From a virus (Duplodnaviria > Heunggongvirae > Uroviricota > Caudoviricetes): a DNA stretch of 39,458 bases. Shown in pieces: positions 1-37,408 of the stretch. Each line of letters opens with the position of its first letter. The first letter of the stretch is position 1. A program made the position numbers and the translations under genes. The DNA is taken from IMG/VR virus record IMGVR_UViG_2698536397_000026, one strand, 5' to 3'. The notes below the pieces were generated by a model that searched no databases, was not told the origin of the DNA, and saw only the letters and a program-made list of their open reading frames with translations.

Positions 1-108
1 ATGACGCTCGCGAAGTTTGCCATGATTTTCTGGCACGACCTGGCAGCACCGATCCTGGCGGGGATTATTACCGCAGCGATTGTCGGCTGGTGGCGTAACC
101 GGAAGTAA
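1..108 (+). CDS. ldr: Ldr-family type I toxin peptide (35 aa), flanking host copy 1
   Basis: 35-aa hydrophobic ORF MTLAKFAMIFWHDLAAPILAGIITAAIVGWWRNRK; matches my recollection of E. coli Ldr toxins (FWHDLAAP motif); near-identical copy at 39351..39458. Confidence 0.6.
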   Translation: MTLAKFAMIFWHDLAAPILAGIITAAIVGWWRNRK

Positions 109-157
109 GGTGAAAACGGGCGTCAGGCTGCCGTGATGGCAATATGCGCCCGAAACC

Positions 158-190
158 GGCCGCAGGGGTAACAGCCTGCGGCCATTTTTG
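158..190 (+). terminator. rho-independent terminator downstream of ldr copy 1
   Basis: 9-bp GC-rich stem GGCCGCAGG / CCTGCGGCC with 8-nt loop, followed by ATTTTTG. Confidence 0.6.
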
Positions 191-223
191 TCTTTATCTC
201 TTCCACAAGTAAATATTGGCAAC

Positions 224-396
224 TGTAACCAGGTGAATCATTTGATACCAACGAGGGTTTTAGTGAAAGGAGGTGAAATCACCTGTAAGATACTGAAATA
301 AAACAGGTGATGTCTGGATGAGCGCTTAAAGTCTATTTGATACCGATTGTGCAATAATTAATCGTTTATTCTAAAATCGGCAAAACTTTTGATACT
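224..396. repeat. attL: left end with three transposase-binding repeats (TTTGATACY at 241, 336, 388)
   Basis: Motif TTTGATAC(C/T) recurs three times, and three times in inverse orientation at the right end; spacing (95 bp, then 52 bp) resembles Mu L1/L2/L3. Confidence 0.5.
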
Positions 397-494
397 ACGG
401 ATTGACGCTAAAATGGCTTTAAAAAGGCTTAAAACGTTTTTCTCCAGATTGTCTTTAAAGGAGTGTACTACAGCACAAAAATTGCACCACTCCC

Positions 495-1079
495 TTACGC
501 ACCAGCCTTTTTCTGGGTTACATTTAAATGATTAACCTTAGCTTCACATTCTTCATAAATCTCTCTTACAGTATCATCGGGTAACTCTTGTAGACTCAAT
601 GCTAGTGCTCTTTTGACTCCGCTCAATGAGTGTAGTTTTTGAATATCTGTATCAAGCAAAACGGTTAGTAGTTCGGCCCCTTTTCTGATCAATAAGTTGG
701 ACAAAATCTCTTGTTCAGATGAAGTTAGCGAGTCCCACGCCCTCATGATGATGGAATCACTATCATCAATTCTTTGTTTTTTTGTTCTTTTTGTTTGTTC
801 AATTGGTTCTTTTTTCATGCTTGGCTCATCACCATAACCATTGACTAGCCACTCCATAGATACATGTTCTCTTTCTGCAATGTTCTGGAGATGGTGCTTT
901 CTTGGTTGTGGTGGCGGCTGATTGTTTCTCCTTTTGTAGTAGTTCTGCAATGTCTGAACGTTTATTCCCCATGCTCTAGCCGCCTCACTTCTCGATTTGT
1001 AACGCTCTGCAAGACGAAAAATCCGTTCGATCACTGGTTCTTTTCCTTCGTCGAGAAAAGAACTGTTTTTCATGTTCAT
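495..1079 (-). CDS. repressor (Mu c-like), leftward; start chosen at internal ATG with AGGAA RBS (ORF extends to 1208)
   Basis: Divergent to ner at the left end as in Mu; HTH-like segment SRSEAARAWGINVQTLQNYYKRR; AAGGAA 8 nt upstream of ATG at 1079. Confidence 0.55.
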   Translation of the reverse strand: MNMKNSSFLDEGKEPVIERIFRLAERYKSRSEAARAWGINVQTLQNYYKRRNNQPPPQPRKHHLQNIAEREHVSMEWLVNGYGDEPSMKKEPIEQTKRTKKQRIDDSDSIIMRAWDSLTSSEQEILSNLLIRKGAELLTVLLDTDIQKLHSLSGVKRALALSLQELPDDTVREIYEECEAKVNHLNVTQKKAGA

Positions 1080-1118
1080 GCTCTCAGGTTCCTTTGTATT
1101 TATCTTATTGATATTAAT

Positions 1119-1180
1119 AACAAAAACACCGCAAAGAATAAAAAGAACAAAACACCTTGATTTGGTTCTTTTGTTTGTTC
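1119..1180. promoter_or_regulatory. candidate repressor operator repeats between c and ner
   Basis: Direct repeats AACAAAAACACC (1119..1130) and GAACAAAACACC (1145..1156), with inverted partner TGTTTGTTC (1172..1180), in an AT-rich divergent control region. Confidence 0.35.
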
Positions 1181-1186
1181 TATTAT
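1157..1186 (+). promoter_or_regulatory. candidate early promoter (Pe-like) for ner-A-B
   Basis: TTGATT -18 bp- TATTAT about 60 bp upstream of ner ATG. Confidence 0.35.
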
Positions 1187-1197
1187 TTACCCGTACA

Positions 1198-1221
1198 GAT
1201 ATCCGCACGAATATCCGCGCG
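1198..1221. promoter_or_regulatory. candidate Ner operator: tandem 12-bp repeats
   Basis: GATATCCGCACG immediately followed by AATATCCGCGCG, between candidate Pe and ner start; Mu Ner is known to bind tandem repeats in this position. Confidence 0.4.
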
Positions 1222-1246
1222 GGTAACTTTTTAGAATAGAGGAAGT

Positions 1247-1495
1247 ATGAGTAGAAGAGAAGTTTCAGATCACGATTGGCCGCCTGAAATCATCAAGGCG
1301 CGCTTACACATGGCTGGCTTATCACTGCGCTCTTTATCTTTAAAGGCTGGTTACAGCAGGGATTCGCTGAAAAGCGTATTACGTACTCCTTGCCGACCGT
1401 ATCAGCAAATAATTGCTGATGCTCTTGGGGTATCGCCTGAAGAAATCTGGCCCAGTCGATACCAGGTTAAGAGCTATATGAGAAAGGCGTCATGA
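1247..1495 (+). CDS. ner: Ner-like DNA-binding transcriptional regulator
   Basis: 82 aa; C-terminal ...PEEIWPSRYQ matches Mu Ner/Nlp family signature as I recall it; position immediately upstream of transposase; RBS AGAGGAAG. Confidence 0.8.
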   Translation: MSRREVSDHDWPPEIIKARLHMAGLSLRSLSLKAGYSRDSLKSVLRTPCRPYQQIIADALGVSPEEIWPSRYQVKSYMRKAS

Positions 1496-1496
1496 T

Positions 1497-3587
1497 ATGT
1501 ATGTCATTGCAAAAGAACTGATTGGCGCGCCCGGAATGCCTGCTACAACAAAAGGTATTCGCCAGGCATTACAACGTTACGTACAAGGGAAAAGCTGTTG
1601 TTCCCGTCGTCGCTCAGGCTCTAAAGCAACTGAATACAGCATCGACTGTTTACCTGAAGTGACGCAGCAGGCATTACGTGAACGTTATGCCCTGCAACTG
1701 ATGACGCAAAAAGCCGATGAATCACCGGCTCCGGTGGTGACAAAGGCCAGACGCTCATCTGACGTGGTTGATGCGGTGGAGGCATATCGCGGATCACCAC
1801 AACTGATGGTCGAACGCCTCAATGCCCTGACTGAAAACCAGCGCCAGGTGGCTGATGCACGAATCGCGATCGTCAGCGAAGTGATGAAAGTCGCGCAACA
1901 ACCCGGTTTCAGCTGCGCGAAAGCTATCCGGTTTATCGTTGACAACCTGGCACGTTCGCAACTGGACGAGCGCATTGTGGCAATGGTTGAGACGGCGAAC
2001 GCCAAAAAGGGAAACAGCCGTGCGTTGAGTGAAATAACGCTGAAACGCTGGATTGCGGCCTTTAACAAGGCGCAGAACGCCGCTGAACGCCTGCTTTTAC
2101 TGGCACCGGGTAAGCGCCAGGAAATAAAAGCCGAAGATATTAACTGGCTGCCCGAATTTCTGGCGCAGTATCGCCAGTCAAACGGCCGACCAATGACCGA
2201 GGCTTACGAGGATTTTGTCGCTGAATGGCAGCACCGGCACGCTGATGAGCCTTATATGCTCGATATCATGCCGTCTTATGACACCATTCGCCGCGCAATG
2301 AAGAAACTGCCGGAAGTGGTGAAACAAAAAGGCCGGGTGACCGGCAGTGAATACCGCCAGCTTGAGGGATTCACGCGCCGCGACTGGTCAAAAATGCCGG
2401 TGAATTATGTCTGGATTGGTGACGGTCACGGCATGAAGCTGAAATGCGCACACCCGGTTCACGGTCGGCCATTTGCACCGGAAGTGACCTTTGTTATCGA
2501 CGGTGGCACGCGCTTTGTGGTGGGCTGGAGCCTTGACCTGGCTGAAAATGTTTTCGCCGTAGCCGGTGCCATACAGCACGGCATTCGCCATCACGGCAAA
2601 CCGTTTCTGTATTACTCGGATAACGGCTCCGGGGAAACCGCCGACATCCTGGATAAGGAGGTTGTGGGGATACTGCCGCGACTGGGGATTAATCACCCGA
2701 CCGGGATTGCCGGTAATCCGCAGGGACGAGGCATTATCGAACGGCTTAACCGCACATTACCGATGCGCATAGCCCGTAAATACCGCACCTATTTCGGGAA
2801 AGGTGCAGATCGCGAGACGTTACGCAAAACCAACCGCGATTTACGCTCGGCATTTACTGCCCTGCAACAGGGCAAACGGCTGAACGCCCGGCAGCAGTCA
2901 GCGATGCGTGATTTACCGTCCTGGTCTGAACTGATTGATGCCATTCGTGACGGTGTTGAGTGGTACAACAACCGGCCGCACGATGAATTACCGGTGAAGC
3001 CGAACGGCAAGCATTACAGCCCGGCGGAGTTCAGAAAAAAACGCCTGGCGGAAGAGGACACGGAAATTGAATGGCTGTCCGATGTTGAGCTGCGGGATAT
3101 GTTCCGGCCGATGGTGGAACGCCCTGTAAGACGCTGTGAAATACGCTGGCTGAATAATATTTACTACGCGCCCGAGCTGCGTGACGAGCATGGTCGTAAG
3201 GTGCTTATCAGCTATGACATTCATGATGCCGAACGAATTACCGTACGTCGCCTGGATGGCAGCGTGATTTGCGAGGCGGTATGGGACGGTAATAAACGCG
3301 AAGCCTTCCCGGTTAGCGCGGAATACTACAAACAGCAGCAACGCCTTAAAGGCATGCGTAAACGCGCAGAGGAAAAAATCCGTGATGCCGAGGATGAGGT
3401 TGTCAACGTGCTGGAGCACAAGCCGCAGGAGCCCTGGCTGGAAAACATATACCGCCCTGTGGGTAATACGGTGACCGTTCAGCAACCGGTCGCTGACGAT
3501 GAACCTGATGAAGAATACGAGCGTAATTTCCAGCGGGGATTGCAGTTGCTGGAAGCGAAATTAAAAGAAAATGACCCGCTGGCCTGA
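1497..3587 (+). CDS. A: Mu-type DDE transposase (MuA-like)
   Basis: 696 aa, second gene of early operon, start overlaps ner stop (TGATATG); size and position as MuA. Confidence 0.85.
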   Translation: MYVIAKELIGAPGMPATTKGIRQALQRYVQGKSCCSRRRSGSKATEYSIDCLPEVTQQALRERYALQLMTQKADESPAPVVTKARRSSDVVDAVEAYRGSPQLMVERLNALTENQRQVADARIAIVSEVMKVAQQPGFSCAKAIRFIVDNLARSQLDERIVAMVETANAKKGNSRALSEITLKRWIAAFNKAQNAAERLLLLAPGKRQEIKAEDINWLPEFLAQYRQSNGRPMTEAYEDFVAEWQHRHADEPYMLDIMPSYDTIRRAMKKLPEVVKQKGRVTGSEYRQLEGFTRRDWSKMPVNYVWIGDGHGMKLKCAHPVHGRPFAPEVTFVIDGGTRFVVGWSLDLAENVFAVAGAIQHGIRHHGKPFLYYSDNGSGETADILDKEVVGILPRLGINHPTGIAGNPQGRGIIERLNRTLPMRIARKYRTYFGKGADRETLRKTNRDLRSAFTALQQGKRLNARQQSAMRDLPSWSELIDAIRDGVEWYNNRPHDELPVKPNGKHYSPAEFRKKRLAEEDTEIEWLSDVELRDMFRPMVERPVRRCEIRWLNNIYYAPELRDEHGRKVLISYDIHDAERITVRRLDGSVICEAVWDGNKREAFPVSAEYYKQQQRLKGMRKRAEEKIRDAEDEVVNVLEHKPQEPWLENIYRPVGNTVTVQQPVADDEPDEEYERNFQRGLQLLEAKLKENDPLA

Positions 3588-3658
3588 AATAAAAAAATAA
3601 CCCGAGCGGCGACTCAGGTTATTTGATTAAACAAGGTATCAAATGAGAGGTTAATAAT

Positions 3659-4591
3659 ATGACTGATATTAACGATGTAATCAAGACCATTGATGAACTT
3701 ATTGATGGCGGCGTACTGACGCAGTATGCCATCGCCAGAGAGGCGGGAATTTCCGACGGCACATTATCGGCTTTCCGTAAGGGAAAATATAAAGGCGATA
3801 ACGCTGCTGTGGCTGCTTCCCTGCGTTCCTGGTATGAGAACTGGAATAAACAAAGCGCACTGCCGGAACCGCCGCAGTTTGTGGAAACGCAGACAGTCCA
3901 GGAGCTGCGCGCACTGTTTCAGGCGGTTCGTCTGATGGGCTGTATTAACGTTATTGTGGGCGTACCGGGTGTGGGTAAAACGGCCACTGCCCGTAATTAC
4001 TGCCAGGAGCAACCAAACACCTGGATGATCACCCTGTCACCCGCGCACTCCAGCGTCACGGAGTGTCTGCTGGAGCTGGCCGATGCGCTGGGGATTGATT
4101 ACACCCGCGCGAACAAAGGGGCATTATCCCGCGCCATCCGCCGTCGCCTGATGGGAACGCGTGGACTGGTGATTGTGGATGAGGCGGATCATCTTGGTAT
4201 TGACGGTCTGGAGCAACTCCGGGCAATTCAGGACGCCACGGGGATCGGGATGGTGCTTATTGGTAACCCGCGCGGATTGTTTAAAGGTGGACGCCGCGCC
4301 TTTGATGATTTATCGCGCCTGTTCAGCCGTCTTGCCCGTACAAAACAACTTCGCAAGGCCAAAAAGGCGGATGTGCTGGCCATTGCCAGGGCGTGGGGGA
4401 TCAGTGGTGAGGCCGAGCTGGCCGTCATGCAGGCTATCGCTGAAAAGCCGGGAGCGTTACGCGTTCTGACACATACGCTTAACCAGGCGTGGCTCACCGC
4501 CAGCGGTGAAGGCGCGGCGCTGACAGAAAAACATATTAATGCGGCCTTTAAAGAGGTTTATACCAACCCTGAATTACTCTCACAGGTGTGA
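3659..4591 (+). CDS. B: transposition ATPase / target DNA activator (MuB-like)
   Basis: 310 aa; Walker A GVPGVGKT and Walker B LVIVDEAD; directly after transposase. Confidence 0.85.
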   Translation: MTDINDVIKTIDELIDGGVLTQYAIAREAGISDGTLSAFRKGKYKGDNAAVAASLRSWYENWNKQSALPEPPQFVETQTVQELRALFQAVRLMGCINVIVGVPGVGKTATARNYCQEQPNTWMITLSPAHSSVTECLLELADALGIDYTRANKGALSRAIRRRLMGTRGLVIVDEADHLGIDGLEQLRAIQDATGIGMVLIGNPRGLFKGGRRAFDDLSRLFSRLARTKQLRKAKKADVLAIARAWGISGEAELAVMQAIAEKPGALRVLTHTLNQAWLTASGEGAALTEKHINAAFKEVYTNPELLSQV

Positions 4592-4593
4592 TT

Positions 4594-4815
4594 ATGGCGG
4601 TATTTAATATTCCTGATATTTACGGACGCTTTTACCTGGTTAATTTCGATAACGTGAAGGTGATTTCACTGGCCGAAAATAAAGAATGTGGCGATTTACT
4701 TTTTGAATTTAATGACCGCACACGAATGGTGATATCTGCCGGACTTGATCGCGAAGGTGCGACAGACGTTTACAGCGGAATATGCCGTTCTGTTGGTGCG
4801 AAACAAGTCAGCTAA
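4594..4815 (+). CDS. hypothetical early protein (74 aa)
   Basis: ORF overlapping B stop (GTGATTATG); start at ATG 4594. Confidence 0.5.
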   Translation: MAVFNIPDIYGRFYLVNFDNVKVISLAENKECGDLLFEFNDRTRMVISAGLDREGATDVYSGICRSVGAKQVS

Positions 4816-4827
4816 ATGAGGTGTTAT

Positions 4828-5082
4828 ATGAATATGCAATCCTGCGGTAACAAAATGAATTTATTCGACTCCCTGAACAGCGCGCGCCGTCTGACCGAAC
4901 TTGCCGGTGCGGTACTGGAACGCAGTAAGCGCTATCCGCAACGTTTTGCACTGAAAACCACGCCGCCGGTAGGCAACGTGCAGGGAACCGGTGAAATTGA
5001 AATCACCATACAGACCAACGGCCTGCGCCGCCGTGTGAAGGCCACCCGCATCAGCGGCTGCACGGTTTACTGGGAGGTGTGA
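4828..5082 (+). CDS. hypothetical early protein (about 84 aa)
   Basis: ORF with GAGGTG RBS before ATG 4828 (track start 4816). Confidence 0.5.
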   Translation: MNMQSCGNKMNLFDSLNSARRLTELAGAVLERSKRYPQRFALKTTPPVGNVQGTGEIEITIQTNGLRRRVKATRISGCTVYWEV

Positions 5083-5083
5083 G

Positions 5084-5365
5084 GTGAAAAAAAATCTCAT
5101 TGCATGGGCGTGGTCGAGTGGTCTTATTGAGTTTGGTTACGTCCTGCCGGAAGGTGCATTGCCGATAGTTGCCGGAAAGCCTGCCACGGTACGGCATGTG
5201 ATTGAGGTTATGGCGCGTCATGGACGTGATGAACAGGAGCAGTTACTGGTTCCGGGGATACCGGAAGCGGTGACGGAGGAAGAAGCCTTTAATGCCATGA
5301 TTCGGTTCTGCCGTGAGGTCAGACGCCGGGTCAGTTATCCAAACAGAACGAGGACCAGAGGATGA
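5084..5365 (+). CDS. hypothetical early protein (93 aa), GTG start
   Basis: GGGAGGTG RBS, GTG start, tight packing with neighbours. Confidence 0.5.
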   Translation: MKKNLIAWAWSSGLIEFGYVLPEGALPIVAGKPATVRHVIEVMARHGRDEQEQLLVPGIPEAVTEEEAFNAMIRFCREVRRRVSYPNRTRTRG

Positions 5366-5634
5366 GTAAAGTCGTACGCATTATTTTCGAATACAAGGAG
5401 CACGTTATCCATAAAAACGCTGATGGAACAGTGCGCATGGGGGTAAGTCTGGACATACGTTCAACCGGGATAAAGCAGAAAGGTGATGGACCCGCCATGA
5501 TTTTTGGGGTGGTTATGCTCGCGGAAAGCAGAGACTTTGCTGAACTTGTGGCAATGAAAGCCAGTGCGCTCATGAAAGATATGAGCATGCGTTCCGGGGT
5601 TATTAAAGGTAATGAATTTAATCAGCAGGGGTAA
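5362..5634 (+). CDS. hypothetical early protein, paralog 1 (90 aa)
   Basis: ATGA overlap with upstream gene; N-terminus MSKVVRIIFEYKEHVIH paralogous to next gene. Confidence 0.55.
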   Translation: MSKVVRIIFEYKEHVIHKNADGTVRMGVSLDIRSTGIKQKGDGPAMIFGVVMLAESRDFAELVAMKASALMKDMSMRSGVIKGNEFNQQG

Positions 5635-5638
5635 TTCC

Positions 5639-5932
5639 ATGAGCAAAGTACGCGTTATTTTTGAATTTAAGCATGTTTCGCATGACGAAAAACCGGCAGG
5701 CAATGACTGTGTTGAAGTGCATGAAAAGATTGGTGTGGATGTAAAAACAGAACGTGATACGAATAACAGGCCGACGTCACTCTGTGACGTTTATGCAAGT
5801 ATTCTCCAGTATCACAGTCCTGAAATTATTCAGTTTCTCTCAGCGGAATTTCAGGCATCTGTACAGGCTTTTGGGGCGGATGCCATCATTAAACGCCACC
5901 GCGTGCATAAAGCATCAGGCACACTGCAATAA
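5639..5932 (+). CDS. hypothetical early protein, paralog 2 (97 aa)
   Basis: N-terminus MSKVRVIFEFKHVSH; RBS AGGGG; start at ATG 5639 (track start 5612). Confidence 0.55.
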   Translation: MSKVRVIFEFKHVSHDEKPAGNDCVEVHEKIGVDVKTERDTNNRPTSLCDVYASILQYHSPEIIQFLSAEFQASVQAFGADAIIKRHRVHKASGTLQ

Positions 5933-5943
5933 GGAAAAACAAA

Positions 5944-6474
5944 ATGGCTAAACGTGTTACAAAATTAAAGGCCGCAGCCGAGGCTGCACCGCAGACCCGC
6001 GAAGAAGTCAGCCGCGATATCCGTACCCTGGGCGATATTCAGCGAGAGGCGCTGCGGCTGGAAACGGCGATGAATGATGAAGTGGCAGAAATCACCGCCC
6101 GTTATACGCCGCAGATTGAAAACCTTAAAAAAGAAATCAAAGTGCTTTTTAAGGGGATTCAGGACTGGTGCAAAACCAACCGCGATGAGCTGACGAACGG
6201 CGGCAAAACCAAAACAGCCAATCTGACCACCGGAACAGTGTCATGGCGGCTGGGAAATCCATCATGCAGCGTCAGCCGTGATGTGGAAGGTGTGATTGAA
6301 ATGCTGCGCCGTATGGGGCTTGAGCGATTCATCCGCACGAAAGAGGAAGTGAACAAGGAAGCGGTCCTGGCGGAGCCGGATGCAGTGAAAGGCATTGCCG
6401 GTATTAAGGTGAATAAAGGCGCTGAAAGTTTTTATGTCGAGCCTTTTGAACAGGACGCCGGACTGAATAAATAA
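5944..6474 (+). CDS. gam: Gam-like host-nuclease inhibitor (Mu Gam / Ku-like DNA end binding)
   Basis: 176 aa; MAKRVTKLKAAAEAAPQ... with TANLTTGTVSWR and FIRTKEEVNKEA segments resembling Mu Gam as I recall it; located in early region. Confidence 0.7.
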   Translation: MAKRVTKLKAAAEAAPQTREEVSRDIRTLGDIQREALRLETAMNDEVAEITARYTPQIENLKKEIKVLFKGIQDWCKTNRDELTNGGKTKTANLTTGTVSWRLGNPSCSVSRDVEGVIEMLRRMGLERFIRTKEEVNKEAVLAEPDAVKGIAGIKVNKGAESFYVEPFEQDAGLNK

Positions 6475-6571
6475 CACCGCATTAAATCTTTAAATATCAC
6501 ATCGTTTTAAGTATGGCGCTCGCGTCAGGGGACTGCCTGCGCCTGTAAACTGAAAATAAGGAACAGGATAT

Positions 6572-7114
6572 ATGGCATATTTTTATTTCAAATTAGACCG
6601 TGTGCAGACAAATAAATATTTCACCAAATATCAACAGACTGTTTTACCGCTACGCAACAGTATTCTTCGGGCATTACTGAAAAATACAGGCGCTGCCGGA
6701 TTGCGCTTAAAGCCGTTTGCCATGGACGTAATCAGTGAGTTTTATTTTTCTGGTGCTCTGCCTGCGGGCTGGCGTAAGCGCGATGATGTGGCTTTTATCG
6801 GGGACGGACCGTGCTTTATTGCCAGACCTGATGAGTCATGCCCTGAAGGACCGGCGATTGCCGCAATGATTGAAGCCGCTGAACGCGAGTTAAGAAAGCG
6901 TCCTGATTTCCTTGTCTGGCTCTGTGAAAAGCTGGGGGTAATGAGAATCCCCTCCATGTTTAACATGGACTCCTGGTGGACCCCGTCGCTCTCCCGTGAT
7001 GCCCTGTGCGTGGTGTTTAAAGTAGGCGCTTATGGCAGGGAAATAAAAGGGGGTATTCCTGAAGAATGCCAGGAGATTAAACATTCTGAATATGTGGCGC
7101 TGACGGAGGAATAA
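6572..7114 (+). CDS. hypothetical early protein (180 aa)
   Basis: ORF with AAGGAACAGG RBS; no recognisable motif. Confidence 0.55.
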   Translation: MAYFYFKLDRVQTNKYFTKYQQTVLPLRNSILRALLKNTGAAGLRLKPFAMDVISEFYFSGALPAGWRKRDDVAFIGDGPCFIARPDESCPEGPAIAAMIEAAERELRKRPDFLVWLCEKLGVMRIPSMFNMDSWWTPSLSRDALCVVFKVGAYGREIKGGIPEECQEIKHSEYVALTEE

Positions 7115-7117
7115 TTC

Positions 7118-7651
7118 ATGATTGATGCAAAAGTGCTTGAAGGGGTTAAAAACTGGCTGAGTATTTACGGGCGTCTGACCTGCGGCATTCTGGCTGAAAA
7201 AATGAATATGCCGCCATCCTCGATGGTTTATTTTCTGCGTGATGCGGTCGATGCCGGGGTGCTGACGGAATGTAACGGTTTTTATGATATTCCGCGTCCC
7301 CGCCCGGTGCAGCCGGTTCGTCGCAAATGCAGCCAGGAAGGTGCGGCTGATGATGTTCAGTGGTGCAGCTTCAGAAAATCCCTGCCGTGGATTGAGGGGC
7401 ATGATATTCCGTCAATGGCGTGGGAATTTGCTCAGGGCGTTCTGACCTGTGAAACCGTTTATGTGGTGGCTGAAGTTGATGAGCAGGCCATGAAAGAAGG
7501 CGTGCCCCAGTTTGTGATGGCGTATATCGACATACGCCTGGGTGTCATTATCTGCGGTTTAAGCGGCTGGAATATCACCTCGCGCGTTCTGCGTTACCTG
7601 ATTGTTGACCGGACGGCCGCGCCTGCCGGGATATCTGCGGAGGTGGCGTAA
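7118..7651 (+). CDS. hypothetical early protein (177 aa), possible winged-helix N-terminus
   Basis: ORF 3 bp after previous stop; N-terminal segment GILAEKMNMPPSSMVYFLRDAVDAGVLTE looks like a DNA-binding helix pair. Confidence 0.5.
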   Translation: MIDAKVLEGVKNWLSIYGRLTCGILAEKMNMPPSSMVYFLRDAVDAGVLTECNGFYDIPRPRPVQPVRRKCSQEGAADDVQWCSFRKSLPWIEGHDIPSMAWEFAQGVLTCETVYVVAEVDEQAMKEGVPQFVMAYIDIRLGVIICGLSGWNITSRVLRYLIVDRTAAPAGISAEVA

Positions 7652-8166
7652 TGTTCTTTAAAACATCAAACCCTTCCGCGCTGGCCGCGTGGCAAAAATA
7701 TCAGCAGGACTGCCAGAAAGTTAAGGATGAGGCAAAACGCCTTGAGGCCGTGCTGAATGTTGCGTGCCGGTCGGTATTTGTATCCGGTATCAGTGGCTTT
7801 TGTTTTAAAGGGCTGCGCTTTATGGATGACAAATATCCTTTTCATCGCGACTTATGGCGAAAACCGACTGCGTCGAATGGCTGGAGCTGCACACCGCGCA
7901 CATCACGTATTCCCAAAGCCCTGCGCGTTGCCTCTGACGAACTTAACAGTCTGTGGCGTGAATATTCGCCCGTCACGTATGCCAGAACCGATGCACTGTT
8001 GTTCTGGCTGGGTATTGATTTCTCGGCAATCATGTTTGGCCCTGTGAAGTGGTTCTGCGTTGACGATGTGATTTACCTTGAGTGCGGCGTAAAACCCGCA
8101 AATCAGAAAATGACCGAAATTCTGTCTGATGAGTTTTATGCTGCTGAAAAGCGAGTCAGGGGGTGA
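7651..8166 (+). CDS. hypothetical early protein (171 aa)
   Basis: ORF overlapping previous stop (TAATG). Confidence 0.5.
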   Translation: MFFKTSNPSALAAWQKYQQDCQKVKDEAKRLEAVLNVACRSVFVSGISGFCFKGLRFMDDKYPFHRDLWRKPTASNGWSCTPRTSRIPKALRVASDELNSLWREYSPVTYARTDALLFWLGIDFSAIMFGPVKWFCVDDVIYLECGVKPANQKMTEILSDEFYAAEKRVRG

Positions 8167-8169
8167 TGT

Positions 8170-8721
8170 ATGATGATTTTACAACCCATGGGGCGAAAAG
8201 GTCAGGCACCTGCTCATGTCCGTGCGTGGACACCTGAAGAAGATGCGCTGCTGATTGCGCTTTATCCATCCACCCCGGTTAAGGATATTGCTGTCAGGGT
8301 AAAAAGAAGTTTCTGGGGTGTACATAACCGGATTGTTTTATTACGCGGTACTTACCCGGAGTTGCTCAAATGCAAACGTCCAAGATTTAAACATGATGAA
8401 GATAAATTTATCCGAAAAAATGCCAGAACGATGACCGGTAAGCAAATAGGAGAATATCTGGGGCGAGACCGGGATTCTGTCCACAATCGGGCGCGATATA
8501 TTGGCGTAAGCATGAAAAAATACGGAGAATTGCTGCCCTTCACCCGTATACCTGACGATGATGTTCATCTTATTCGTGAATTACGGGATGCTGAATCACC
8601 ACGACGTCTTACCTTCCGGGAAATAGGCGAGAAATTTGAATTATCCGAGAGTACGGTGAATTTTATTTATCACCATCGCCGGACTGCCGAGGACGCTGTA
8701 TTACGGGAGTTAACGCCATGA
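8170..8721 (+). CDS. hypothetical early protein with three internal HTH-like repeats (183 aa)
   Basis: Three about 45-aa repeats each beginning with an acidic triplet (EED / DED / DDD) and containing a helix-turn-helix-like segment (two with SVHNR / GVHNR). Confidence 0.5.
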   Translation: MMILQPMGRKGQAPAHVRAWTPEEDALLIALYPSTPVKDIAVRVKRSFWGVHNRIVLLRGTYPELLKCKRPRFKHDEDKFIRKNARTMTGKQIGEYLGRDRDSVHNRARYIGVSMKKYGELLPFTRIPDDDVHLIRELRDAESPRRLTFREIGEKFELSESTVNFIYHHRRTAEDAVLRELTP

Positions 8722-8903
8722 TAAAGAGACTTGTATTTTTCGCAATTTTCGTTCCGGTGTTGGGGGTTGGTTTTATATTTGCGATTACAGGAAACCTGTC
8801 CATGATGCCAGATATTTGGTTCTTTATCAGGATGTCGCTCTTCCTGTTTATTATGAATCTTCTTATCGACATATATATCCGTATTACTGGAAAACATAAA
8901 TGA
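8718..8903 (+). CDS. small membrane peptide (61 aa, two predicted TM helices)
   Basis: ATGA overlaps on both sides; hydrophobic FFAIFVPVLGVGFIFAI and FFIRMSLFLFIMNLLI. Confidence 0.45.
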   Translation: MIKRLVFFAIFVPVLGVGFIFAITGNLSMMPDIWFFIRMSLFLFIMNLLIDIYIRITGKHK

Positions 8904-9274
8904 GAAAAATCACGTCCTTGTCAGAGTTACAGGAGATGAATATGAGTATTGAATTAAGATCGTCTTATGAGTATCGCAAATTTCTTATCGCCGGAGGCAT
9001 GAAACCGGAAGATGTGGAAAAAATCGTTTCTTTTATGGATAAGGAATGTGATAAGCGGGATGTGTCAGAAATTATTATGGATGACATGATTCTGGATTCA
9101 GTCGTGGCGTTAAGTCCGTTATGGATTGTGCATTCTCTTGCGGAAATTGCCAAAGGCACCGATAAACAGGCAGCTGTTGCTGCCCTTCAGACGCTTAATG
9201 AAATGCGTATATCTCCACGCCCGACATTAATACAGATGATTTTGTCCAGTATGGAGGATAAAGCAAATGAATAG
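8900..9274 (+). CDS. hypothetical early protein (124 aa)
   Basis: ORF translationally coupled to neighbours. Confidence 0.5.
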   Translation: MRKITSLSELQEMNMSIELRSSYEYRKFLIAGGMKPEDVEKIVSFMDKECDKRDVSEIIMDDMILDSVVALSPLWIVHSLAEIAKGTDKQAAVAALQTLNEMRISPRPTLIQMILSSMEDKANE

Positions 9275-9464
9275 TCTACCCGCTGGATGGGCGCGCCCTC
9301 TGATGGCTAAGAAGCATCATTTTTTTAAAACTGGCGATAATATCAGTATATGTAGGCGGTGGTTATATCTGGCTCATAATCGCGAGCCGGATACATTTGA
9401 AAGCCCTGATGACTGTGCCGAATGTCGCAGAAGACTGAATAAGGAGAAAGATAATGGACAATAG
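9267..9464 (+). CDS. small Cys-containing protein (65 aa)
   Basis: ORF overlapping neighbours; C-terminal CAEC pair. Confidence 0.4.
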   Translation: MNSLPAGWARPLMAKKHHFFKTGDNISICRRWLYLAHNREPDTFESPDDCAECRRRLNKEKDNGQ

Positions 9465-9750
9465 TTCTCTGTTGTTCTGGTGCTTATATATCACATCCTT
9501 TTTCGGCGCATTTGTTATTACCCGGTGGTTATGTCGAAAAATCATCTGCTTTTTTGATAAAAGACATCCGGTTGAACGGGCGGCTGATGCGCTCATTCAG
9601 CAGGCCATTGTGTTATATAGCGGTGAATTTTTCTGCCGGATAACAACCAGAGATGGCTGGCACATAATGATTATTCCACCAACACACCATGCCCGGTGGG
9701 ATGAGGCAGAAAAGGCTTTCCATGTCCGTAAAAAGGTAAATACGGTATGA
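9454..9750 (+). CDS. hypothetical membrane-anchored early protein (98 aa)
   Basis: N-terminal hydrophobic LLFWCLYITSFFGAFVI; ATGA overlap with gemA. Confidence 0.5.
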   Translation: MDNSSLLFWCLYITSFFGAFVITRWLCRKIICFFDKRHPVERAADALIQQAIVLYSGEFFCRITTRDGWHIMIIPPTHHARWDEAEKAFHVRKKVNTV

Positions 9751-10256
9751 GAGGAAAACTGATATCCGCCATTCATGTGGCAAAGCGCGAGCTTGCCCTG
9801 GATGATGAGACTTATACATCCGCGCTGCTGGCAGCCACCGGCAAAACCAGCTGCCGGGATATGTCACCGGATGAGTTATCCCGCGTGCTGGATGTTTTCA
9901 AAAAACGCGGTTTTAAAGTGCGTCAGAACCCGGTTAACCGGGCCTTAAAACCGGGTACGGTGACCGCCAAAATTCGCGCCATCTGGAAGGTGATGCACCG
10001 GCAGGGCTTTATCTCTGATGGTGCGGAAACCGCCCTTAACCGCTGGGTGAAATCGCAGACGGCCGCGCAAAACGGCGGCGAAGGTGTGGCAAACTGGCAG
10101 TGGCTGGAGCAACACCCCGCCCTGGCCTCAGATGTGCTGGAGCGTCTCAAGCGATGGCACCGCCGCAAAATGCTGGCCGCGATGGGAATGCCCGAACGCA
10201 CGCTGATGGGGTATGACGCCGTTTGCAGGCAGTATGAAAAATCACTTCCCCGTTAA
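9747..10256 (+). CDS. gemA: GemA / Mu gp16-like regulatory protein
   Basis: 169 aa, last gene of early operon; N-terminal IHVAKRELALDDETY...TGKTSCRDMSPDEL pattern typical of GemA family as I recall it. Confidence 0.65.
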   Translation: MRGKLISAIHVAKRELALDDETYTSALLAATGKTSCRDMSPDELSRVLDVFKKRGFKVRQNPVNRALKPGTVTAKIRAIWKVMHRQGFISDGAETALNRWVKSQTAAQNGGEGVANWQWLEQHPALASDVLERLKRWHRRKMLAAMGMPERTLMGYDAVCRQYEKSLPR

Positions 10257-10260
10257 CTCC

Positions 10261-10290
10261 AAATCCCGCCACAACGCGGGATTTTTATTT
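10261..10290 (+). terminator. rho-independent terminator ending the early operon
   Basis: AAATCCCGC-CACAAC-GCGGGATTT hairpin followed by TTTATTTT. Confidence 0.65.
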
Positions 10291-10325
10291 TAAACTTACC
10301 GGGAACGCGAGAACCGGAGGCTGAT

Positions 10326-10751
10326 ATGGCAGAAACTCAGATGAGCATGTTTGGTGGTGACAGTGAGCAACTGCACGCCCTTATCGACCGCCTTGATGAC
10401 ATCCCTGATGATGTTCTCAAAAAGAACTGGCCGCGGACCCTGTCAGAACTGGTTGAAGTCACCGGCGCAGAACTTCAGCGTCAGGGGATTGAGCCGGTAC
10501 TGGCCGGTAAACTGGCACGCAAGGTGGCTGCGGCTCAGGCAGCCTATATGGGCGGACGGGGTTATTACCTGCCGGTCGGGGAATCTCTCTTTGCCGAGCT
10601 GCGAAACAATGAGATATTTTCGCGCTGGGACCGGGGCGAGAAAATTGAATCCCTTCGCCGCCATTACCGGATGTCAGAAACCCAGATTTATACCGTCATA
10701 CGCGAACAGCGCCGTCTGCATCTGGCAAGAACGCAACCGCCACTTTTCTGA
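10326..10751 (+). CDS. Mor/C-family transcriptional activator (middle/late gene activator)
   Basis: 141 aa; C-terminal HTH region and ending ...QPPLF, similar to Mu Mor / C proteins as I recall them; own RBS GGAGG after terminator. Confidence 0.7.
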   Translation: MAETQMSMFGGDSEQLHALIDRLDDIPDDVLKKNWPRTLSELVEVTGAELQRQGIEPVLAGKLARKVAAAQAAYMGGRGYYLPVGESLFAELRNNEIFSRWDRGEKIESLRRHYRMSETQIYTVIREQRRLHLARTQPPLF

Positions 10752-10822
10752 TATTCCGCAAAGCCTGCCGCCTCTCCTTCACCGTTACGCTGACTCAGAG
10801 AACATCATGAGACAGCGTAACA

Positions 10823-11323
10823 ATGCCAAAACTCCCCGCACCACTGCGTAAAAAGCTGATTGCCCTTGTTCTGGCCGGTGCCGGGACGTTCACGATTGCC
10901 ACGCATTACACCGGTTACTGGGAAGGGAAAGAAAACTCCACGTATATCGATCCCACCGGTACACCCACCATCTGTTACGGCCATACCGGCCCGGATGTGA
11001 AACCGGGTATGACCCTGACAGATGAAGAATGCCTGGAACTACTGGAAAAGGACATGAAATGGGCCTTTGCGGCCATTGATCGGCGTGTTCAGGTGCCGCT
11101 TACCCGTGGTCAGACGGTGGCGCTGGCTTCGTGGATCTTCTGGGCCGGTGAAACGAACTTTCGCAACTCCACGCTTCTGCGCCTGATCAATGCCGGGCAG
11201 ATGCCCGCGTCCTGTAAGCAGTATATCCGCTGGATTTATTCAAAGGGGGTGAAACTCCCCGGCCTTGAGGCCCGCCGTTCGGCGGATGAATGGTTATGTC
11301 GCTACGACTTGCCGAAAGTCTGA
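10823..11323 (+). CDS. lys: endolysin, T4-lysozyme-like (GH24), probable signal-anchor-release (SAR) type
   Basis: 166 aa; hydrophobic N-terminus LIALVLAGAGTFTIA followed by YWEGKENSTYIDPTGTPTICYGHTG lysozyme catalytic region. Confidence 0.8.
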   Translation: MPKLPAPLRKKLIALVLAGAGTFTIATHYTGYWEGKENSTYIDPTGTPTICYGHTGPDVKPGMTLTDEECLELLEKDMKWAFAAIDRRVQVPLTRGQTVALASWIFWAGETNFRNSTLLRLINAGQMPASCKQYIRWIYSKGVKLPGLEARRSADEWLCRYDLPKV

Positions 11324-11396
11324 ACCGCTTCTGGCGACCGCTCATGATAGCGCTGCTGTGTGCGGTACTGCTGTTACGGGGTGTCCTGTGGCTGCG

Positions 11397-11786
11397 GTGA
11401 ATAATGCCTTACCGGCCCTGATTGCCGGGGCGTGCATGGCGGCGCTGGGGATTATCGCTGTACTGGTTGCCGCTATATGGGGAATGCACCAGAAGACGCA
11501 GCGCCTTGAAGACAATAATCAGGTGCTTGTGCGTGAGCGGGATGAGGCGCGTCAGGTGCTGGCAAATCAGCAGCACACCCTGCAACTCATTTCACAAATC
11601 AGTGAGGCGGCCACGAATGAAAAACAACAGAACATTCAGCACAGCGAGGGGCAGCAGAGCGTTGTCCGCCGGTCGCTGGCGGCAGTGCCTGCGGCCTCTG
11701 CCCCTGTTCCTGATGATGTGGCTGATCGGGTGCGCCGGGCCGTCTGTGAAATACGTGCCTGTGAAGCCGGTGCCGATCCCCGCTGA
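11397..11786 (+). CDS. i-spanin (Rz-like), GTG start proposed
   Basis: N-terminal TM segment LPALIAGACMAALGIIAVLVAAIWG then coiled-coil-like periplasmic region; directly after endolysin. Confidence 0.55.
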   Translation: MNNALPALIAGACMAALGIIAVLVAAIWGMHQKTQRLEDNNQVLVRERDEARQVLANQQHTLQLISQISEAATNEKQQNIQHSEGQQSVVRRSLAAVPAASAPVPDDVADRVRRAVCEIRACEAGADPR

Positions 11787-11988
11787 ATGGCTGGCTGACT
11801 GCCTGGTCCCTCCTGCGCCGGAGCCGTTCACGTTTGGGGCATCGGTCACTTACAACCTGCAACTGCTGGCGGTGATCAAGAACTGCAACGTGGACAAGGC
11901 CAGTATTCGTCGTCTGGAGGCGCGGCGACAACATGAATTTACTGATATGGCCGGAACGCCTGCTGTTCCGGCAGGAAAGACGAAGTAA
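11617..11988 (+). CDS. o-spanin (Rz1-like lipoprotein), nested in +1 frame within i-spanin
   Basis: MKNNRTF... signal with lipobox-like LIGC then Pro-rich mature region; starts inside the i-spanin gene in another frame. Confidence 0.6.
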   Translation: MKNNRTFSTARGSRALSAGRWRQCLRPLPLFLMMWLIGCAGPSVKYVPVKPVPIPAEWLADCLVPPAPEPFTFGASVTYNLQLLAVIKNCNVDKASIRRLEARRQHEFTDMAGTPAVPAGKTK

Positions 11989-11998
11989 GGAAAAAGGT

Positions 11999-12226
11999 AT
12001 GGATGATTCAGATCGTGCTCAGGCTGTGATGGAGCGGGGATCAGAACGCGCCCTTTGTAACCGGCTGACACGTAAGCGCCGGGCAATGGATGCTCCGGGC
12101 AGACGTGTCTGCGCGGACTGTGGCGGAGAGATCCCCGCCGCACGTCTTGTTGCTGTGCCGGATGCCATCCGTTGTGTGAACTGCCAGAACATCATGGAGG
12201 CCCGTCATGTGGGTCAGCATCGTTAA
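11999..12226 (+). CDS. TraR/DksA-type C4 zinc-finger protein (75 aa)
   Basis: CADCGGEIP...RCVNCQ four-Cys motif; RBS AAGGAAAAAGG; start at ATG 11999 (track ORF starts 11933). Confidence 0.6.
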   Translation: MDDSDRAQAVMERGSERALCNRLTRKRRAMDAPGRRVCADCGGEIPAARLVAVPDAIRCVNCQNIMEARHVGQHR

Positions 12227-12515
12227 AGATTATGTTGTGCCGATCCTTTCGGCGACGGCAACCGCTGGCGGGATATTCATGGCGCTGATGCGCAAAACGT
12301 TTGTCCCCCGCGAGGCCTTTGAAAAACTCTCCGACCGCGTTGAGAAGGTGGAAACCCGCCTGTCGTCACTGCCGACAGAAGCCGAGGTCAACCGTCTGAA
12401 TGTGGAAATCGTGACCCTGCGGGGTGAACTGAAAACCACGAACGCCACGCTCCGCTCTGTCTCCTATCAGAACGAACTGCTGCTGGAGCAGGCTGTAAGG
12501 AAAAAAACGCAATGA
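12207..12515 (+). CDS. membrane-anchored coiled-coil protein (102 aa), possibly lysis- or morphogenesis-associated
   Basis: N-terminal hydrophobic VVPILSATATAGGIFMALM followed by heptad-like region. Confidence 0.5.
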   Translation: MWVSIVKDYVVPILSATATAGGIFMALMRKTFVPREAFEKLSDRVEKVETRLSSLPTEAEVNRLNVEIVTLRGELKTTNATLRSVSYQNELLLEQAVRKKTQ

Positions 12516-12802
12516 GTGATTTCATTACTGAAGATCAGCGTCTGGTCATTCTGCGGTCGCTGGCAGATTACAACGGTGAACTGGGTGAATCCGTGCTCCA
12601 GGACTGTCTGGATGATTACGGCCACCGCGTGTCCCGCGACACCGTTCACACCCACATTGCCTGGCTTGCCGAGCAGGGACTGGTGCGTAAGCGCACGCTC
12701 GTTAACGGTTATTTCATCGCCGAACTGACCGGCCGGGGTCAGGATGTGGCGGAAGGTCGCGCCAGCGTTCCAGGTGTGAAGAAACCACGCGCAAGGGGGT
12801 AA
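12512..12802 (+). CDS. hypothetical protein (96 aa)
   Basis: ATGA-coupled ORF. Confidence 0.5.
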   Translation: MSDFITEDQRLVILRSLADYNGELGESVLQDCLDDYGHRVSRDTVHTHIAWLAEQGLVRKRTLVNGYFIAELTGRGQDVAEGRASVPGVKKPRARG

Positions 12803-12804
12803 CG

Positions 12805-13386
12805 ATGGACAAGCCGACGCGTGGACGCGTGCGCAAGGTGGATTTGCTCCCCGACAGCATCCGTAAGCCACTGCTGGAAATGCTGCGTGAAAAACGTCTG
12901 ACGCAGGTCCAGATACGCGAGGAAATCAACCGTCTGATCCGTGAGGCGGGCCTGCCGGAAGAGCAGCAGCTTTCACCGGCGGCCATCAGCCGGGAAGCCT
13001 CCCGTAATGAGCTGATTGCCCGTAACCTGCGTGATTTACGCGAGCAGACAAAAGCCATGATGGCCGAACTGGGAGACAAGCCAACCGGTGAAACCACAGC
13101 GCTGATTCTGGAGATGTCCCGCGCCCTGATGTACCGCCGTCTGCGTGCCGCGACCGAATCCCTGAACAGTGACAGCGACGTGGATATGCGTCTTATTAAG
13201 GACATCCTCCTGTCAGCACAGCGTGCGGAAAGTGCCGCCGAGCGCAGCATTAAGCGTGAAAAAGAAATCCGGGCCGCATTTGCTGAAGAGATGGCAAACG
13301 CCGTCACCGACGAGCTGCGCGGCGTGGACGGGATGAGTGAACAGCTTGAGTCCCGTATTAAGGGGATTCTGTTGGGTAAAGCCTGA
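12805..13386 (+). CDS. DNA-binding / small terminase-like protein (Mu gp27-like)
   Basis: 193 aa immediately upstream of large terminase; RBS AAGGGGG. Confidence 0.5.
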   Translation: MDKPTRGRVRKVDLLPDSIRKPLLEMLREKRLTQVQIREEINRLIREAGLPEEQQLSPAAISREASRNELIARNLRDLREQTKAMMAELGDKPTGETTALILEMSRALMYRRLRAATESLNSDSDVDMRLIKDILLSAQRAESAAERSIKREKEIRAAFAEEMANAVTDELRGVDGMSEQLESRIKGILLGKA

Positions 13387-15050
13387 TGAATAACGCCGAA
13401 GAACTCTCCCCCTTACTGACGAATACCGTCTCCACCCGCAAAATTGATCTGGCCGGTGAAAAAGCCCTGCTGGGCGTGGATGTGCCGGACAGCCTTGATT
13501 TGCCCGGTGATATGCCGGTATTTCTGGATTATCAGGCCCGCTGGTTTGAGGATGAAAGCGAGGTCTGCATCGCGGAAAAATCCCGCCGCACCGGGCTTAC
13601 CTGGGCGGAAGCCGGGCGTAACGTCATTACCGCCGCAAAGCCTAAGCGGCGTGGTGGCCGCAATGTGTTTTATGTGGGGTCAAAGCAGGAGATGGCGCTG
13701 GAATATATTTCTGCCTGCGCACTGTTCTCCCGTGCCTTTAACCAGCTGGCAGATGCTGATGTGTATGAGCAGACCTTCTGGGATCGGGATAAAAAAGAAG
13801 AAATTCTGACCTACATGATCCGCTTTCCGAACAGTGGATTCAAAATTCAGGCACTGTCTTCCCGTCCGTCAAACCTGCGCGGCCTTCAGGGGGATGTGGT
13901 GATTGATGAAGCCGCGTTCCACGAGTCACTGGATGAGCTTCTCAAGGCGGCAATGGCGCTCACCATGTGGGGCGCGCGCGTGCGTATTATCTCCACGCAT
14001 AACGGCGTCGATAATCTGTTTAATCAGTACATTCAGGAAGCCCGCGAAGGGCGCAAGGATTACAGCGTCCACCGCATTACCCTGGATGATGCCATTGCGG
14101 ACGGGCTGTACCGTCGTATCTGTTATGTCACCGGCCGCGAATGGTCACCGGAAAGCGAGCAGAAGTGGCGTGATGATCTCTACAAAAACGCCCCGACCCG
14201 TGAGGATGCCGACGAGGAATACGGCTGTATCCCGAAAAAATCCGGCGGTGCCTATATTCCTCACGCGCTTATTGAAATGGCGATGCTCCGCGACATCCCG
14301 ATTCTGACGTTTGAAGCCCCGGACGACTTCATCAGCCGTGCCGCATGGCTGCGTGAATCGGAGGTTTTAACCTGGTGTGAAGAACATTTAAAACCGCTTT
14401 TAGAGGCGTTAAATCCCCGTTCCCGCTTCAGCTTCGGGGAAGACTTTGCCCGCATCGGTGACCTCTCCTGCTTTGTGCTGCTGGAAATCACTGAATCCCT
14501 GGCAAAACGCGAGGTGTTTCGCGTGGAGCTGCGCAACCTGCCGTATGCCCAGCAGGAGCAGGTGATGATGTACATCCTGACCCGCGTTCCGGCGCTGGTC
14601 GGTGCGGCGTTCGACGCCACCGGTAACGGCGGCTATCTGGCCGAAGCCGCGCTGCTGGCCTTTGGCCCGGACATCATCGACTGCGTGATGTTATCGCCGA
14701 AGTGGTACGGCGAGTGGATGCCAAAACTGAAGGCCGAGTTTGAGGATCAGAATATCCTCGTCGCCCGCCATCAGACCACGCTTGATGATTTGCGCCATGT
14801 GAAGGTGGTGAACGGTATCCCGCAAATTGACAAGGGGCGTACGAAGGACCAGAACGCAACGGCTGTGAACGCCCGCCGCCATGGCGATTTTGCCGTGGCG
14901 CTCTGTATGGCAAACCGGGCGTCATACATGGAGGGCTTCATCCTGGATGAATCAGCCTGTCAGGCGCTGCCGGAGCGGTCGCGGGCCATGGAGGGCGGTT
15001 ATCGTGATGACGATGAGGCATATCATGAATTTGATCGGGGGTGCTGGTAG
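13386..15050 (+). CDS. terminase large subunit (Mu gp28-like)
   Basis: 554 aa; Walker-B-like GDVVIDEAAFHE; position before portal. Confidence 0.7.
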   Translation: MNNAEELSPLLTNTVSTRKIDLAGEKALLGVDVPDSLDLPGDMPVFLDYQARWFEDESEVCIAEKSRRTGLTWAEAGRNVITAAKPKRRGGRNVFYVGSKQEMALEYISACALFSRAFNQLADADVYEQTFWDRDKKEEILTYMIRFPNSGFKIQALSSRPSNLRGLQGDVVIDEAAFHESLDELLKAAMALTMWGARVRIISTHNGVDNLFNQYIQEAREGRKDYSVHRITLDDAIADGLYRRICYVTGREWSPESEQKWRDDLYKNAPTREDADEEYGCIPKKSGGAYIPHALIEMAMLRDIPILTFEAPDDFISRAAWLRESEVLTWCEEHLKPLLEALNPRSRFSFGEDFARIGDLSCFVLLEITESLAKREVFRVELRNLPYAQQEQVMMYILTRVPALVGAAFDATGNGGYLAEAALLAFGPDIIDCVMLSPKWYGEWMPKLKAEFEDQNILVARHQTTLDDLRHVKVVNGIPQIDKGRTKDQNATAVNARRHGDFAVALCMANRASYMEGFILDESACQALPERSRAMEGGYRDDDEAYHEFDRGCW

Positions 15051-16639: not shown

Positions 16640-17954
16640 TTTAGGTTATGCCGCCACCCTTCCCTCAAAAGAGGCGGTGGCATACTTCCGCGCCAAAGGG
16701 GCGCATATCAGCTGGAACTGGTTCGAAACAGACGCGGATGTTCATGCCCGTTCATTCACGGCGGCAAGAGTGGCACGCCTGGACGTACTGACCACACTAC
16801 AGGCGGAAGTGCAGCGTGCTGTTGATGAGGGGATTTCACAGAAAGCATTTATCAGCACGCTGACACCCCGCCTGCAAAAGCTGGGATGGTGGGGAAAACA
16901 GATTGTGGTGGACAGCGCCGGTAACGCAGAAGAAGTGCAGCTGGGCAGTCCCCGCCGTCTGGCGCTGATTTACAACGTGAACACCCGTGTGGCTTACAAT
17001 GCCGGGCGTTACACGCAGATGATGAACAACACGGACACGCATCCGTTCTGGCAGTATGTGGCGGTGATGGACAGCCGCACCCGCCCGGCGCATTCCGCTC
17101 TTAACGGTCTGGTATTCCGCTATGACGATCCGTTCTGGAATACACACTACCCACCCAATGGCTGGAACTGTCGCTGCCGTGTCCGGCCATTGTCTCAGGC
17201 CCGTCTGGATGCAATGGGGTTATCCGTTTCATCCGGTCAGGATCATCTCTCCACCCGCAATGTTGAGGCTGGCGTGGATAAGCAGACCGGGGAAGTCAGA
17301 GAAATGCCGGTGACCACATATTCAGATGGCACCAGAACCATGACACCGGATGTGGGCTGGTCATATAACCCCGGTTCGGCGGCGTTCGGCACAGACCAGG
17401 CGCTGATCCGTAAACTGATCGAGGTGAAAAGCCCGGCGCTGCGGGAAATGGTGGTTCAGGAGATGAACAACAGCCCGGAGCGGCAACTGGCGTTCCGCAT
17501 CTGGGCAAAAAACATCATGAAAACCCGGCGAGGCGGTAACGATATCCGCACGCTGGGCTTTATGACCGAAAGCATTGCGCAGGCGGTGGAAAGCCGGACG
17601 GGAACGCCACCGGCCCGCCTGCTGGCGATGAGCGGTAAAAATGTGCTCCATGCGGACAGCATGAAACATCAGAATGACGGTATCGCCCTGACGCCGGAGG
17701 ATTTCGGGCGCTTACCGGCAATGCTGGCAAGGCCAAAAGCGGTACTGTGGGACAAACGGCACAACAATCTGATGTATATCGTGGAAAATCAGGATGGCAG
17801 TGTGCAGATTGCCGTTAATGCACCGTACAGCCTGAAGCGTCAGCCGGATAAACTGGATGTGATTGTTAATGCTTACCGGGTTATCAATATGGATAAGCTG
17901 AAATCGGATATCCGGGGCGGAATGCTTGAGGTACTGGAAGGAGATATTGATTAA
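16623..17954 (+). CDS. head morphogenesis protein (Mu F-like)
   Basis: 443 aa, follows portal as in Mu. Confidence 0.6.
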   Translation: MAQGIDLGYAATLPSKEAVAYFRAKGAHISWNWFETDADVHARSFTAARVARLDVLTTLQAEVQRAVDEGISQKAFISTLTPRLQKLGWWGKQIVVDSAGNAEEVQLGSPRRLALIYNVNTRVAYNAGRYTQMMNNTDTHPFWQYVAVMDSRTRPAHSALNGLVFRYDDPFWNTHYPPNGWNCRCRVRPLSQARLDAMGLSVSSGQDHLSTRNVEAGVDKQTGEVREMPVTTYSDGTRTMTPDVGWSYNPGSAAFGTDQALIRKLIEVKSPALREMVVQEMNNSPERQLAFRIWAKNIMKTRRGGNDIRTLGFMTESIAQAVESRTGTPPARLLAMSGKNVLHADSMKHQNDGIALTPEDFGRLPAMLARPKAVLWDKRHNNLMYIVENQDGSVQIAVNAPYSLKRQPDKLDVIVNAYRVINMDKLKSDIRGGMLEVLEGDID

Positions 17955-18075
17955 CGGTCAGTGGCGGGGGTCGAACCCGCATACATGATCCACCCGGAGG
18001 CAGGCACCGACTTTACCAGTTAAGCGTACACTGACCGCCTGTTTATTTTATATTCATCCTTTATGCGGAGGCAAT

Positions 18076-20797: not shown

Positions 20798-20840
20798 ACG
20801 GTGAGCCGGGCTTACGGCCCGGCCCCTGCGGAGGGCAAAT

Positions 20841-23972: not shown

Positions 23973-23980
23973 GGTAAGGC

Positions 23981-24346: not shown

Positions 24347-24360
24347 TCAGGAAAAATAAA

Positions 24361-37399: not shown

Positions 37400-37408
37400 C
37401 AATACCGA

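Follow-up and report, generated by a model that had tools for sequence, protein, structure and literature searches.

An Sp18-type Mu-like prophage and its host junctions between neighbouring ldr/rdl units of an Escherichia coli LDR array

The stretch of DNA analysed here (the window, 39,458 bp) very probably represents an Sp18-type Mu-like prophage plus the host junction on either side, the phage having transposed between neighbouring ldr/rdl units that were already in place. The phage would have entered a non-coding stretch of about 240 bp, giving the order chaA - ldr/rdl - ldr/rdl - phage - ldrA/rdlA - kdsA, and transposition would have doubled four bases of the target, CAAC. The 108-bp open reading frames (ORFs) at the two edges of the window would be neighbouring paralogous type I toxin genes that predate the arrival of the phage, each ldr probably retaining its terminator, promoter region, leader frame and rdl. 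As both toxin genes and their antisense antitoxins are intact, we regard this as an ordinary prophage insertion.

Toxin ORFs, repeat units and the empty site

The left ldr ORF (1..108, plus strand) belongs to the middle LDR unit, and the right one (ldrA, 39351..39458, plus strand) to the kdsA-proximal unit. Both encode 35 amino acids, with the peptide MTLAKFAMIFWHDLAAPILAGIITAAIVGWWRNRK on the left and MTLAQF... on the right. The two are identical at 106/108 nt; the mismatch at position 13 (A/C) gives K5Q and that at position 63 (G/A) is silent, which agrees, as do the two 35-aa translations, with the original prediction of one 108-bp ORF present twice with two mismatches. The same prediction took the peptide for an Ldr toxin, and Pfam PF13940 (Ldr_toxin) matches both copies end to end, with 85.2 bits for the left and 87.7 bits for the right (cut-off 27), scores that are far above chance. 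The RefSeq label of the left ORF is Ldr family toxin (WP_000170926.1), and the right one is labelled ldrA (WP_000170954.1) in the annotation of the FHI_NMBU_11 genome. For LdrD and LdrA, toxicity and repression by the cognate Rdl are known from the literature. An in-frame ATG lies 27 nt 5' of the annotated ldr start (window 39324-39458) and would give an N-terminally extended Ldr of 44 aa (MLSLQQGGY-MTLAQ...); this upstream ATG falls inside the inferred rdl promoter region.

In the complete genome of FHI_NMBU_11 (locus L001), which is 99.8% identical to the window, the gene order is chaA - ldr - ldr - prophage - ldrA - kdsA. Strain 120899 has the identical three-ldr tandem with the prophage absent, and K-12 MG1655 reads kdsA - ldrA/rdlA - ldrB/rdlB - ldrC/rdlC - chaA with a period of 535 bp. 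These gene orders place the left window ORF at the ldrB position and the right one at that of ldrA. The chaA-kdsA locus holds three tandem LDR units with a period of 535/536 bp. Host DNA between the two window ORFs amounts to 115 bp on the left (109-223) and 312 bp on the right (39039-39350), that is 427 bp with one copy of the 4-bp duplication removed, and this corresponds to a 535-bp period, equal to that of ldrA/ldrB/ldrC in K-12; about 424 bp, or one unit of about 530 bp, had been anticipated. When the flanks were compared with LDR units, a check suggested with the original prediction, both aligned, in K-12 and in thousands of E. coli genomes. Right-flank-like sequence was found in 5426/5426 complete E. 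coli genomes (median 4 places per genome) and left-flank-like sequence in 5422 of the 5426 (median 2 places).

The joined flanks (1-223 plus 39039-39458) are identical at 643/643 positions to strain 120899 (61325-61967), so that the proposed reconstruction of contiguous host DNA is exact. The empty site in that strain reads ...TTGGCAACCCGAG... with one CAAC, and in the window CAAC stands both at 220..223, as seen from the empty-site comparison, and at 39035..39038, as seen from the sequence and the same comparison. These 4 bp are the sole sequence doubled by the insertion, and the true junctions are 223|224 and 39034|39035. The flank boundaries first proposed, 223 and 39037, come within 2 bp of these, and the view that the 108-bp ORFs represent paralogous units of the repeat, as opposed to a target duplication, is upheld by the exact empty site; the duplication of 5 bp that had been assumed from Mu-type transposition has to be replaced by one of 4 bp.

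The position of the two nearly identical 108-bp repeats exactly at both window edges could also suggest that they are terminal repeats or an att duplication, and so part of the mobile element and not of the host. That reading is refuted by the exact empty site and is almost certainly wrong: ldr ORFs occur in tandem without the phage across the complete E. coli genomes (5426 searched), K-12 has the same array, and phage copies at other sites have no ldr at their ends. Tandem repeats of 535 bp are also difficult to assemble, and the junctions might in principle be artefacts of the repeated LDR units. We consider this scarcely credible, since identical junctions are present in four independent complete genomes (one from Norway, two from Japan and one from Canada) and the element is flanked by a clean 4-bp duplication typical of the Sp18-type phage. 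The same LDR insertion was found in 4 of the 5426 complete E. coli genomes, namely FHI_NMBU_11, JNEC-KY174, JNEC-KY202 and CFIAFB20190167.

Phage ends, target duplication and gene content

The prophage comprises 38,811 bp (224..39034, plus strand); dozens of independent insertions served to set its ends. The left terminus, 5'-TGTAACC, recurs at dozens of unrelated sites, the right terminus reads ...GCGCTATA-3' in all copies examined, and many copies cease matching at 39034. An exact 4-bp duplication abuts the termini in 9/9 independent simple insertions (window 220-224 and 39031-39038; loci L003-L006 and L013-L022). The duplicated bases are CAAC in the window, CTCC in AR-0430, CCAA in UTAK-8, ACTA in strain 107, TAAA for Sakai Sp18, CTGA in F8492, CGCA in SMN013SH2, CGAT in SRCC 1675 and CGAC in O111:H8 8B; the initial base is C in seven of the nine. 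That the ends do not vary, that the target duplication is short and that the empty site is exact together identify insertion by transposition.

Two other placements of the ends were considered and rejected. A right end at CA (39035-39036), by analogy with Mu, does not agree with the many independent copies that cease matching at 39034, and CAAC is host sequence in the empty site. A 5-bp duplication with T224 as the fifth base was discarded as well, as T224 recurs at dozens of unrelated sites and a T follows the right copy in 3/9 insertions, which is the chance level. The RefSeq feature for Sp18 in Sakai appears to assume 5 bp, as it begins at the G of GTAACC and takes in TAAAG on the right.

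Phage Mu makes a 5-bp target duplication and has termini of the form TG...CA. The Sp18-type element differs in its right end, which is ...TA-3' and not ...CA-3', and in its duplication of 4 bp and not 5 bp in all nine cases. This consistent combination implies a target-capture geometry unlike that of the MuA transpososome and may merit a specialist's glance. No report of a 4-bp duplication for the Sp18 lineage was found in the literature searched, which is no proof of novelty.

The count of duplications does not include the copies in strain 142 and on plasmid p8479-1, which have unrelated flanking genes and no duplication and were treated as rearranged. The copy in strain 142 (L007/L008) has an ISEc8 transposase on one side and a ketoacyl synthase on the other, and that on the 167-kb plasmid p8479-1 (L009/L010) lies between a thiosulfate reductase subunit and yeaW, neither with a matching duplication; this suggests phage-associated rearrangements.

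Gene content was taken from the annotation of the 99.8%-identical copy, Pfam and PHROGs. A c-like phage repressor (495..1079, minus strand; a CDS in L001) matches PHROG 3037, transcriptional repressor, with E = 3e-59, and is transcribed towards the left end and the 3' end of the host ldr. Also identified were an A-like transposase of 696 aa (1497..3587, plus strand; Pfam Mu-transpos_C and HTH_Tnp_Mu_1, PHROG 310 transposase) and a MuB-like AAA+ transposition ATPase (3659..4591, plus strand; Pfam Phage-MuB_C and AAA_22). The transposase and the MuB-type ATPase adjoin repressor and ner at one end, in a Mu-like gene order. Further genes are a ner-like HTH gene, those for Gam, Mor, lysis, a Mu gpT-type head and a contractile tail, and com, while a Gin-like serine invertase (34173..34733, plus strand) is recognised by Pfam Resolvase and HTH_7. 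The last phage gene, mom (38169..38906, plus strand; Pfam Mom, 257.8 bits), is directed towards ldrA. After it comes a hairpin with a U-run (38937..38984, plus strand), inside the phage right end, whose resemblance to a terminator suggests that it acts as one; the RNA fold z-score is -4.7 for 38900-39040. When the transposase was compared with PDB sequences by phmmer (E <= 1e-3), MuA was not matched, the weak matches being to retroviral integrase catalytic cores alone, with E about 1e-4. From its sequence the 696-aa protein is best described as a divergent relative of MuA.

Between gin and com (window 34824-37835), where Mu has no accessory genes, the prophage carries about 3 kb of them: a 685-aa DUF6645 protein (PHROG 143, unknown function), DUF1378, DUF826 and one minus-strand gene. 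The last is split here into two ORFs, 37115-37486 and 37488-37835; the near-identical genome has it annotated as frameshifted. A PADLOC search of the gin-com accessory genes gave no defence-system match. PGAP annotates a 'tRNA-OTHER' in the FHI_NMBU_11 prophage (L001 22836-22915, about window 17955-18034), which was dismissed, as both ARAGORN and Rfam were blank for it in the window.

Regulatory parts around the insertion

On the left side the 3' UTR and intrinsic terminator of ldr occupy 109..190 (plus strand), with a hairpin at 158-183 and a T-run to 190; they were called by the terminator scan, and K-12 LDR units share this conserved region. From the terminator to the start of the phage is 33 nt. 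On the right, the rdl antisense antitoxin RNA (rdlA position) was located at 39238..39303 on the minus strand by Rfam RF01813 (rdlD), with 87.6 bits against a gathering score of 50 and a full-length match (1-66), an intact copy of the RNA that the original prediction had not been able to find by eye. It folds to a stable hairpin (-26.7 kcal/mol, z = -4.5). The rdl of the left unit lies outside the window; in the 99.8%-identical genome it stands 49 nt before window position 1 (L001 4768-4833, minus strand), and all three ldr genes retain a cognate rdl.

A putative rdl promoter can be read from the sequence at 39310..39338 (minus strand), with -35 TTGTAA (39338-39333), a 17-nt spacer and -10 TATTCT (39315-39310), and its +1 agrees with the Rfam 5' end at 39303. 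The probable -10 of ldrA is TAGTAT (39155..39160, plus strand), conserved as TAGAAT in LDR-D at the point where the LDR-D homology starts, and it is by this conservation that the putative ldrA promoter is placed; a consensus promoter scan of 38900-39458 and 1-520 gave nothing at threshold and no strong sigma-70 match. Downstream of it the ORF list contains an open frame for a putative leader, the ldrX frame (39184..39354, plus strand), which ends in a TGA that shares bases with the ldr ATG (ATGA), and such an overlap would fit the proposed coupled leader. The concept of ldrX as a leader ORF coupled to ldr comes from reviews (PMC4147584, PMC8167048), which give ldr/rdl a presumed hok/sok-like logic: the 5' UTR is long, a leader ORF is coupled to the toxin gene, and translation of that leader is blocked by an antisense RNA. 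The isolated LDR-D unit is the one in which the LdrD toxin and the RdlD antitoxin have been tested experimentally.

When the reconstructed unit is compared with the chaA-proximal unit of K-12, similarity starts within some 5-30 bp past the insertion point, and when it is compared with LDR-D it starts at the -10-like TAGTAT/TAGAAT, about 120 nt downstream of the junction. The insertion thus appears to lie at about the boundary of two LDR units, some 120 nt upstream of the likely ldrA -10. The original prediction that the prophage splits a repeat unit therefore holds under one chosen repeat phase and not as a functional split, since the site is between transcription units. Its further suggestion that an ldr gene may be cut off from its regulatory context did not hold up, the site lying beyond the upstream terminator and some 120 nt short of the conserved downstream -10. 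As each ldr keeps its own regulatory parts, the toxin-antitoxin modules should function as they did without the phage, and expression of ldrA would be unchanged by the insertion. Direct repeats of about 535 bp that are 97-98% identical flank the prophage, and homologous recombination between them by RecA could therefore delete it along with one LDR unit.

One may ask whether the insertion nevertheless rewires the array, either by loss of the upstream context of ldrA or by phage transcription entering the flanking ldr genes, through read-through in the direction of mom into ldrA or in the direction of the repressor, antisense to the left ldr. The distances are small, with only 33 nt between the left ldr terminator and the phage and some 120 nt between the phage and the putative ldrA -10, and the terminator scan called no canonical minus-strand terminator from the repressor stop (495) to window position 1, so that antisense read-through into the left ldr is possible. 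Displaced upstream sequences could still contribute to ldrA regulation. However, every recognised element is intact, and both the first unit of the array and LDR-D are entirely without the displaced upstream sequence. The strong hairpin and U-run inside the phage, 3' of mom, argue against read-through into ldrA. Overall we judge such rewiring unlikely, and the suggested functional disruption of the toxin-antitoxin array is not borne out, its anatomy being against it.

A more elaborate proposal joins recombination with transcription. Precise excision is not possible for a Mu-type prophage. In the joint proposal, RecA-mediated unequal crossover between the flanking 535-bp repeats could cure the host of the phage cleanly at the cost of one unit, and phage transcription could couple the state of the phage to ldr toxin expression; from the geometry, a possible route is by transcripts in the direction of the repressor, antisense to the left ldr, and by late ones in the direction of mom that enter ldrA. 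We hold this combination to be very unlikely, and prefer the reading of a transposed prophage between pre-existing units that are expected to go on functioning.

Relatives and comparison with known systems

The LDR ldr/rdl array is well known, as is the Sp18-type Mu-like prophage, and the LDR insertion is already public in four complete genomes in which the phage and the ldr genes are annotated. The insertion matters little in itself, as a transposable prophage in non-coding DNA within a known repeat array. Its use is as a clean worked example: the exact empty site is available, both modules have stayed whole, and the repeats on either side are paralogues that the element did not generate.

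Between the window and FHI_NMBU_11 the host flanks are identical, and 80 alignment columns differ over window 2500-33999. The differing columns are bunched in a few prophage patches, e.g. 3000-3500 and 21000-21500. Such patchy divergence fits recombination between Mu-like copies that followed a shared insertion.

The prophage is closely related to Sakai Sp18 and to the 'Mu-like phage' inserts inside Stx phages. Sp18-type phages are described as apparently intact, packaged and not circularised, with a location that varies among STEC strains (PMC2669165, PMC7430833, PMC10132054). It shares with Sp18 of E. coli O157:H7 Sakai and with the STEC Mu-like phages the ends, the gene order and a high nucleotide identity, and also the variable chromosomal location, which is consistent with transposition. 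It differs from Sakai Sp18 in its site, which is sorM in Sakai and the LDR spacer here, in small divergent patches and in some accessory genes. With Mu itself it has in common the arrangement of repressor, ner, A and B on the left, gam, mor and the late genes, the gin invertible segment, com-mom on the right and a left end of 5'-TGTA, whereas nucleotide similarity of Mu to the window prophage is patchy, at about 72%.

On the host side, the K-12 LDR-A/B/C array is given as ldrA-rdlA, ldrB-rdlB and ldrC-rdlC between kdsA and chaA in the account of Kawano et al. 2002 contained in PMC4147584. The array examined here resembles it in locus, 535-bp period, number of units (three), near-identical ORFs, rdl RNAs and terminators, and differs in that a 38.8-kb prophage separates the middle from the kdsA-proximal unit. 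The window peptides are one or two residues apart from the K-12 Ldr peptides, the left copy having K5 and the right copy G29 for S29. With hok/sok the ldr/rdl units share the same presumed logic, with which the ATGA overlap of the putative leader frame agrees, although the sequences of the two systems are unrelated and the ldrX mechanism is a proposed one.
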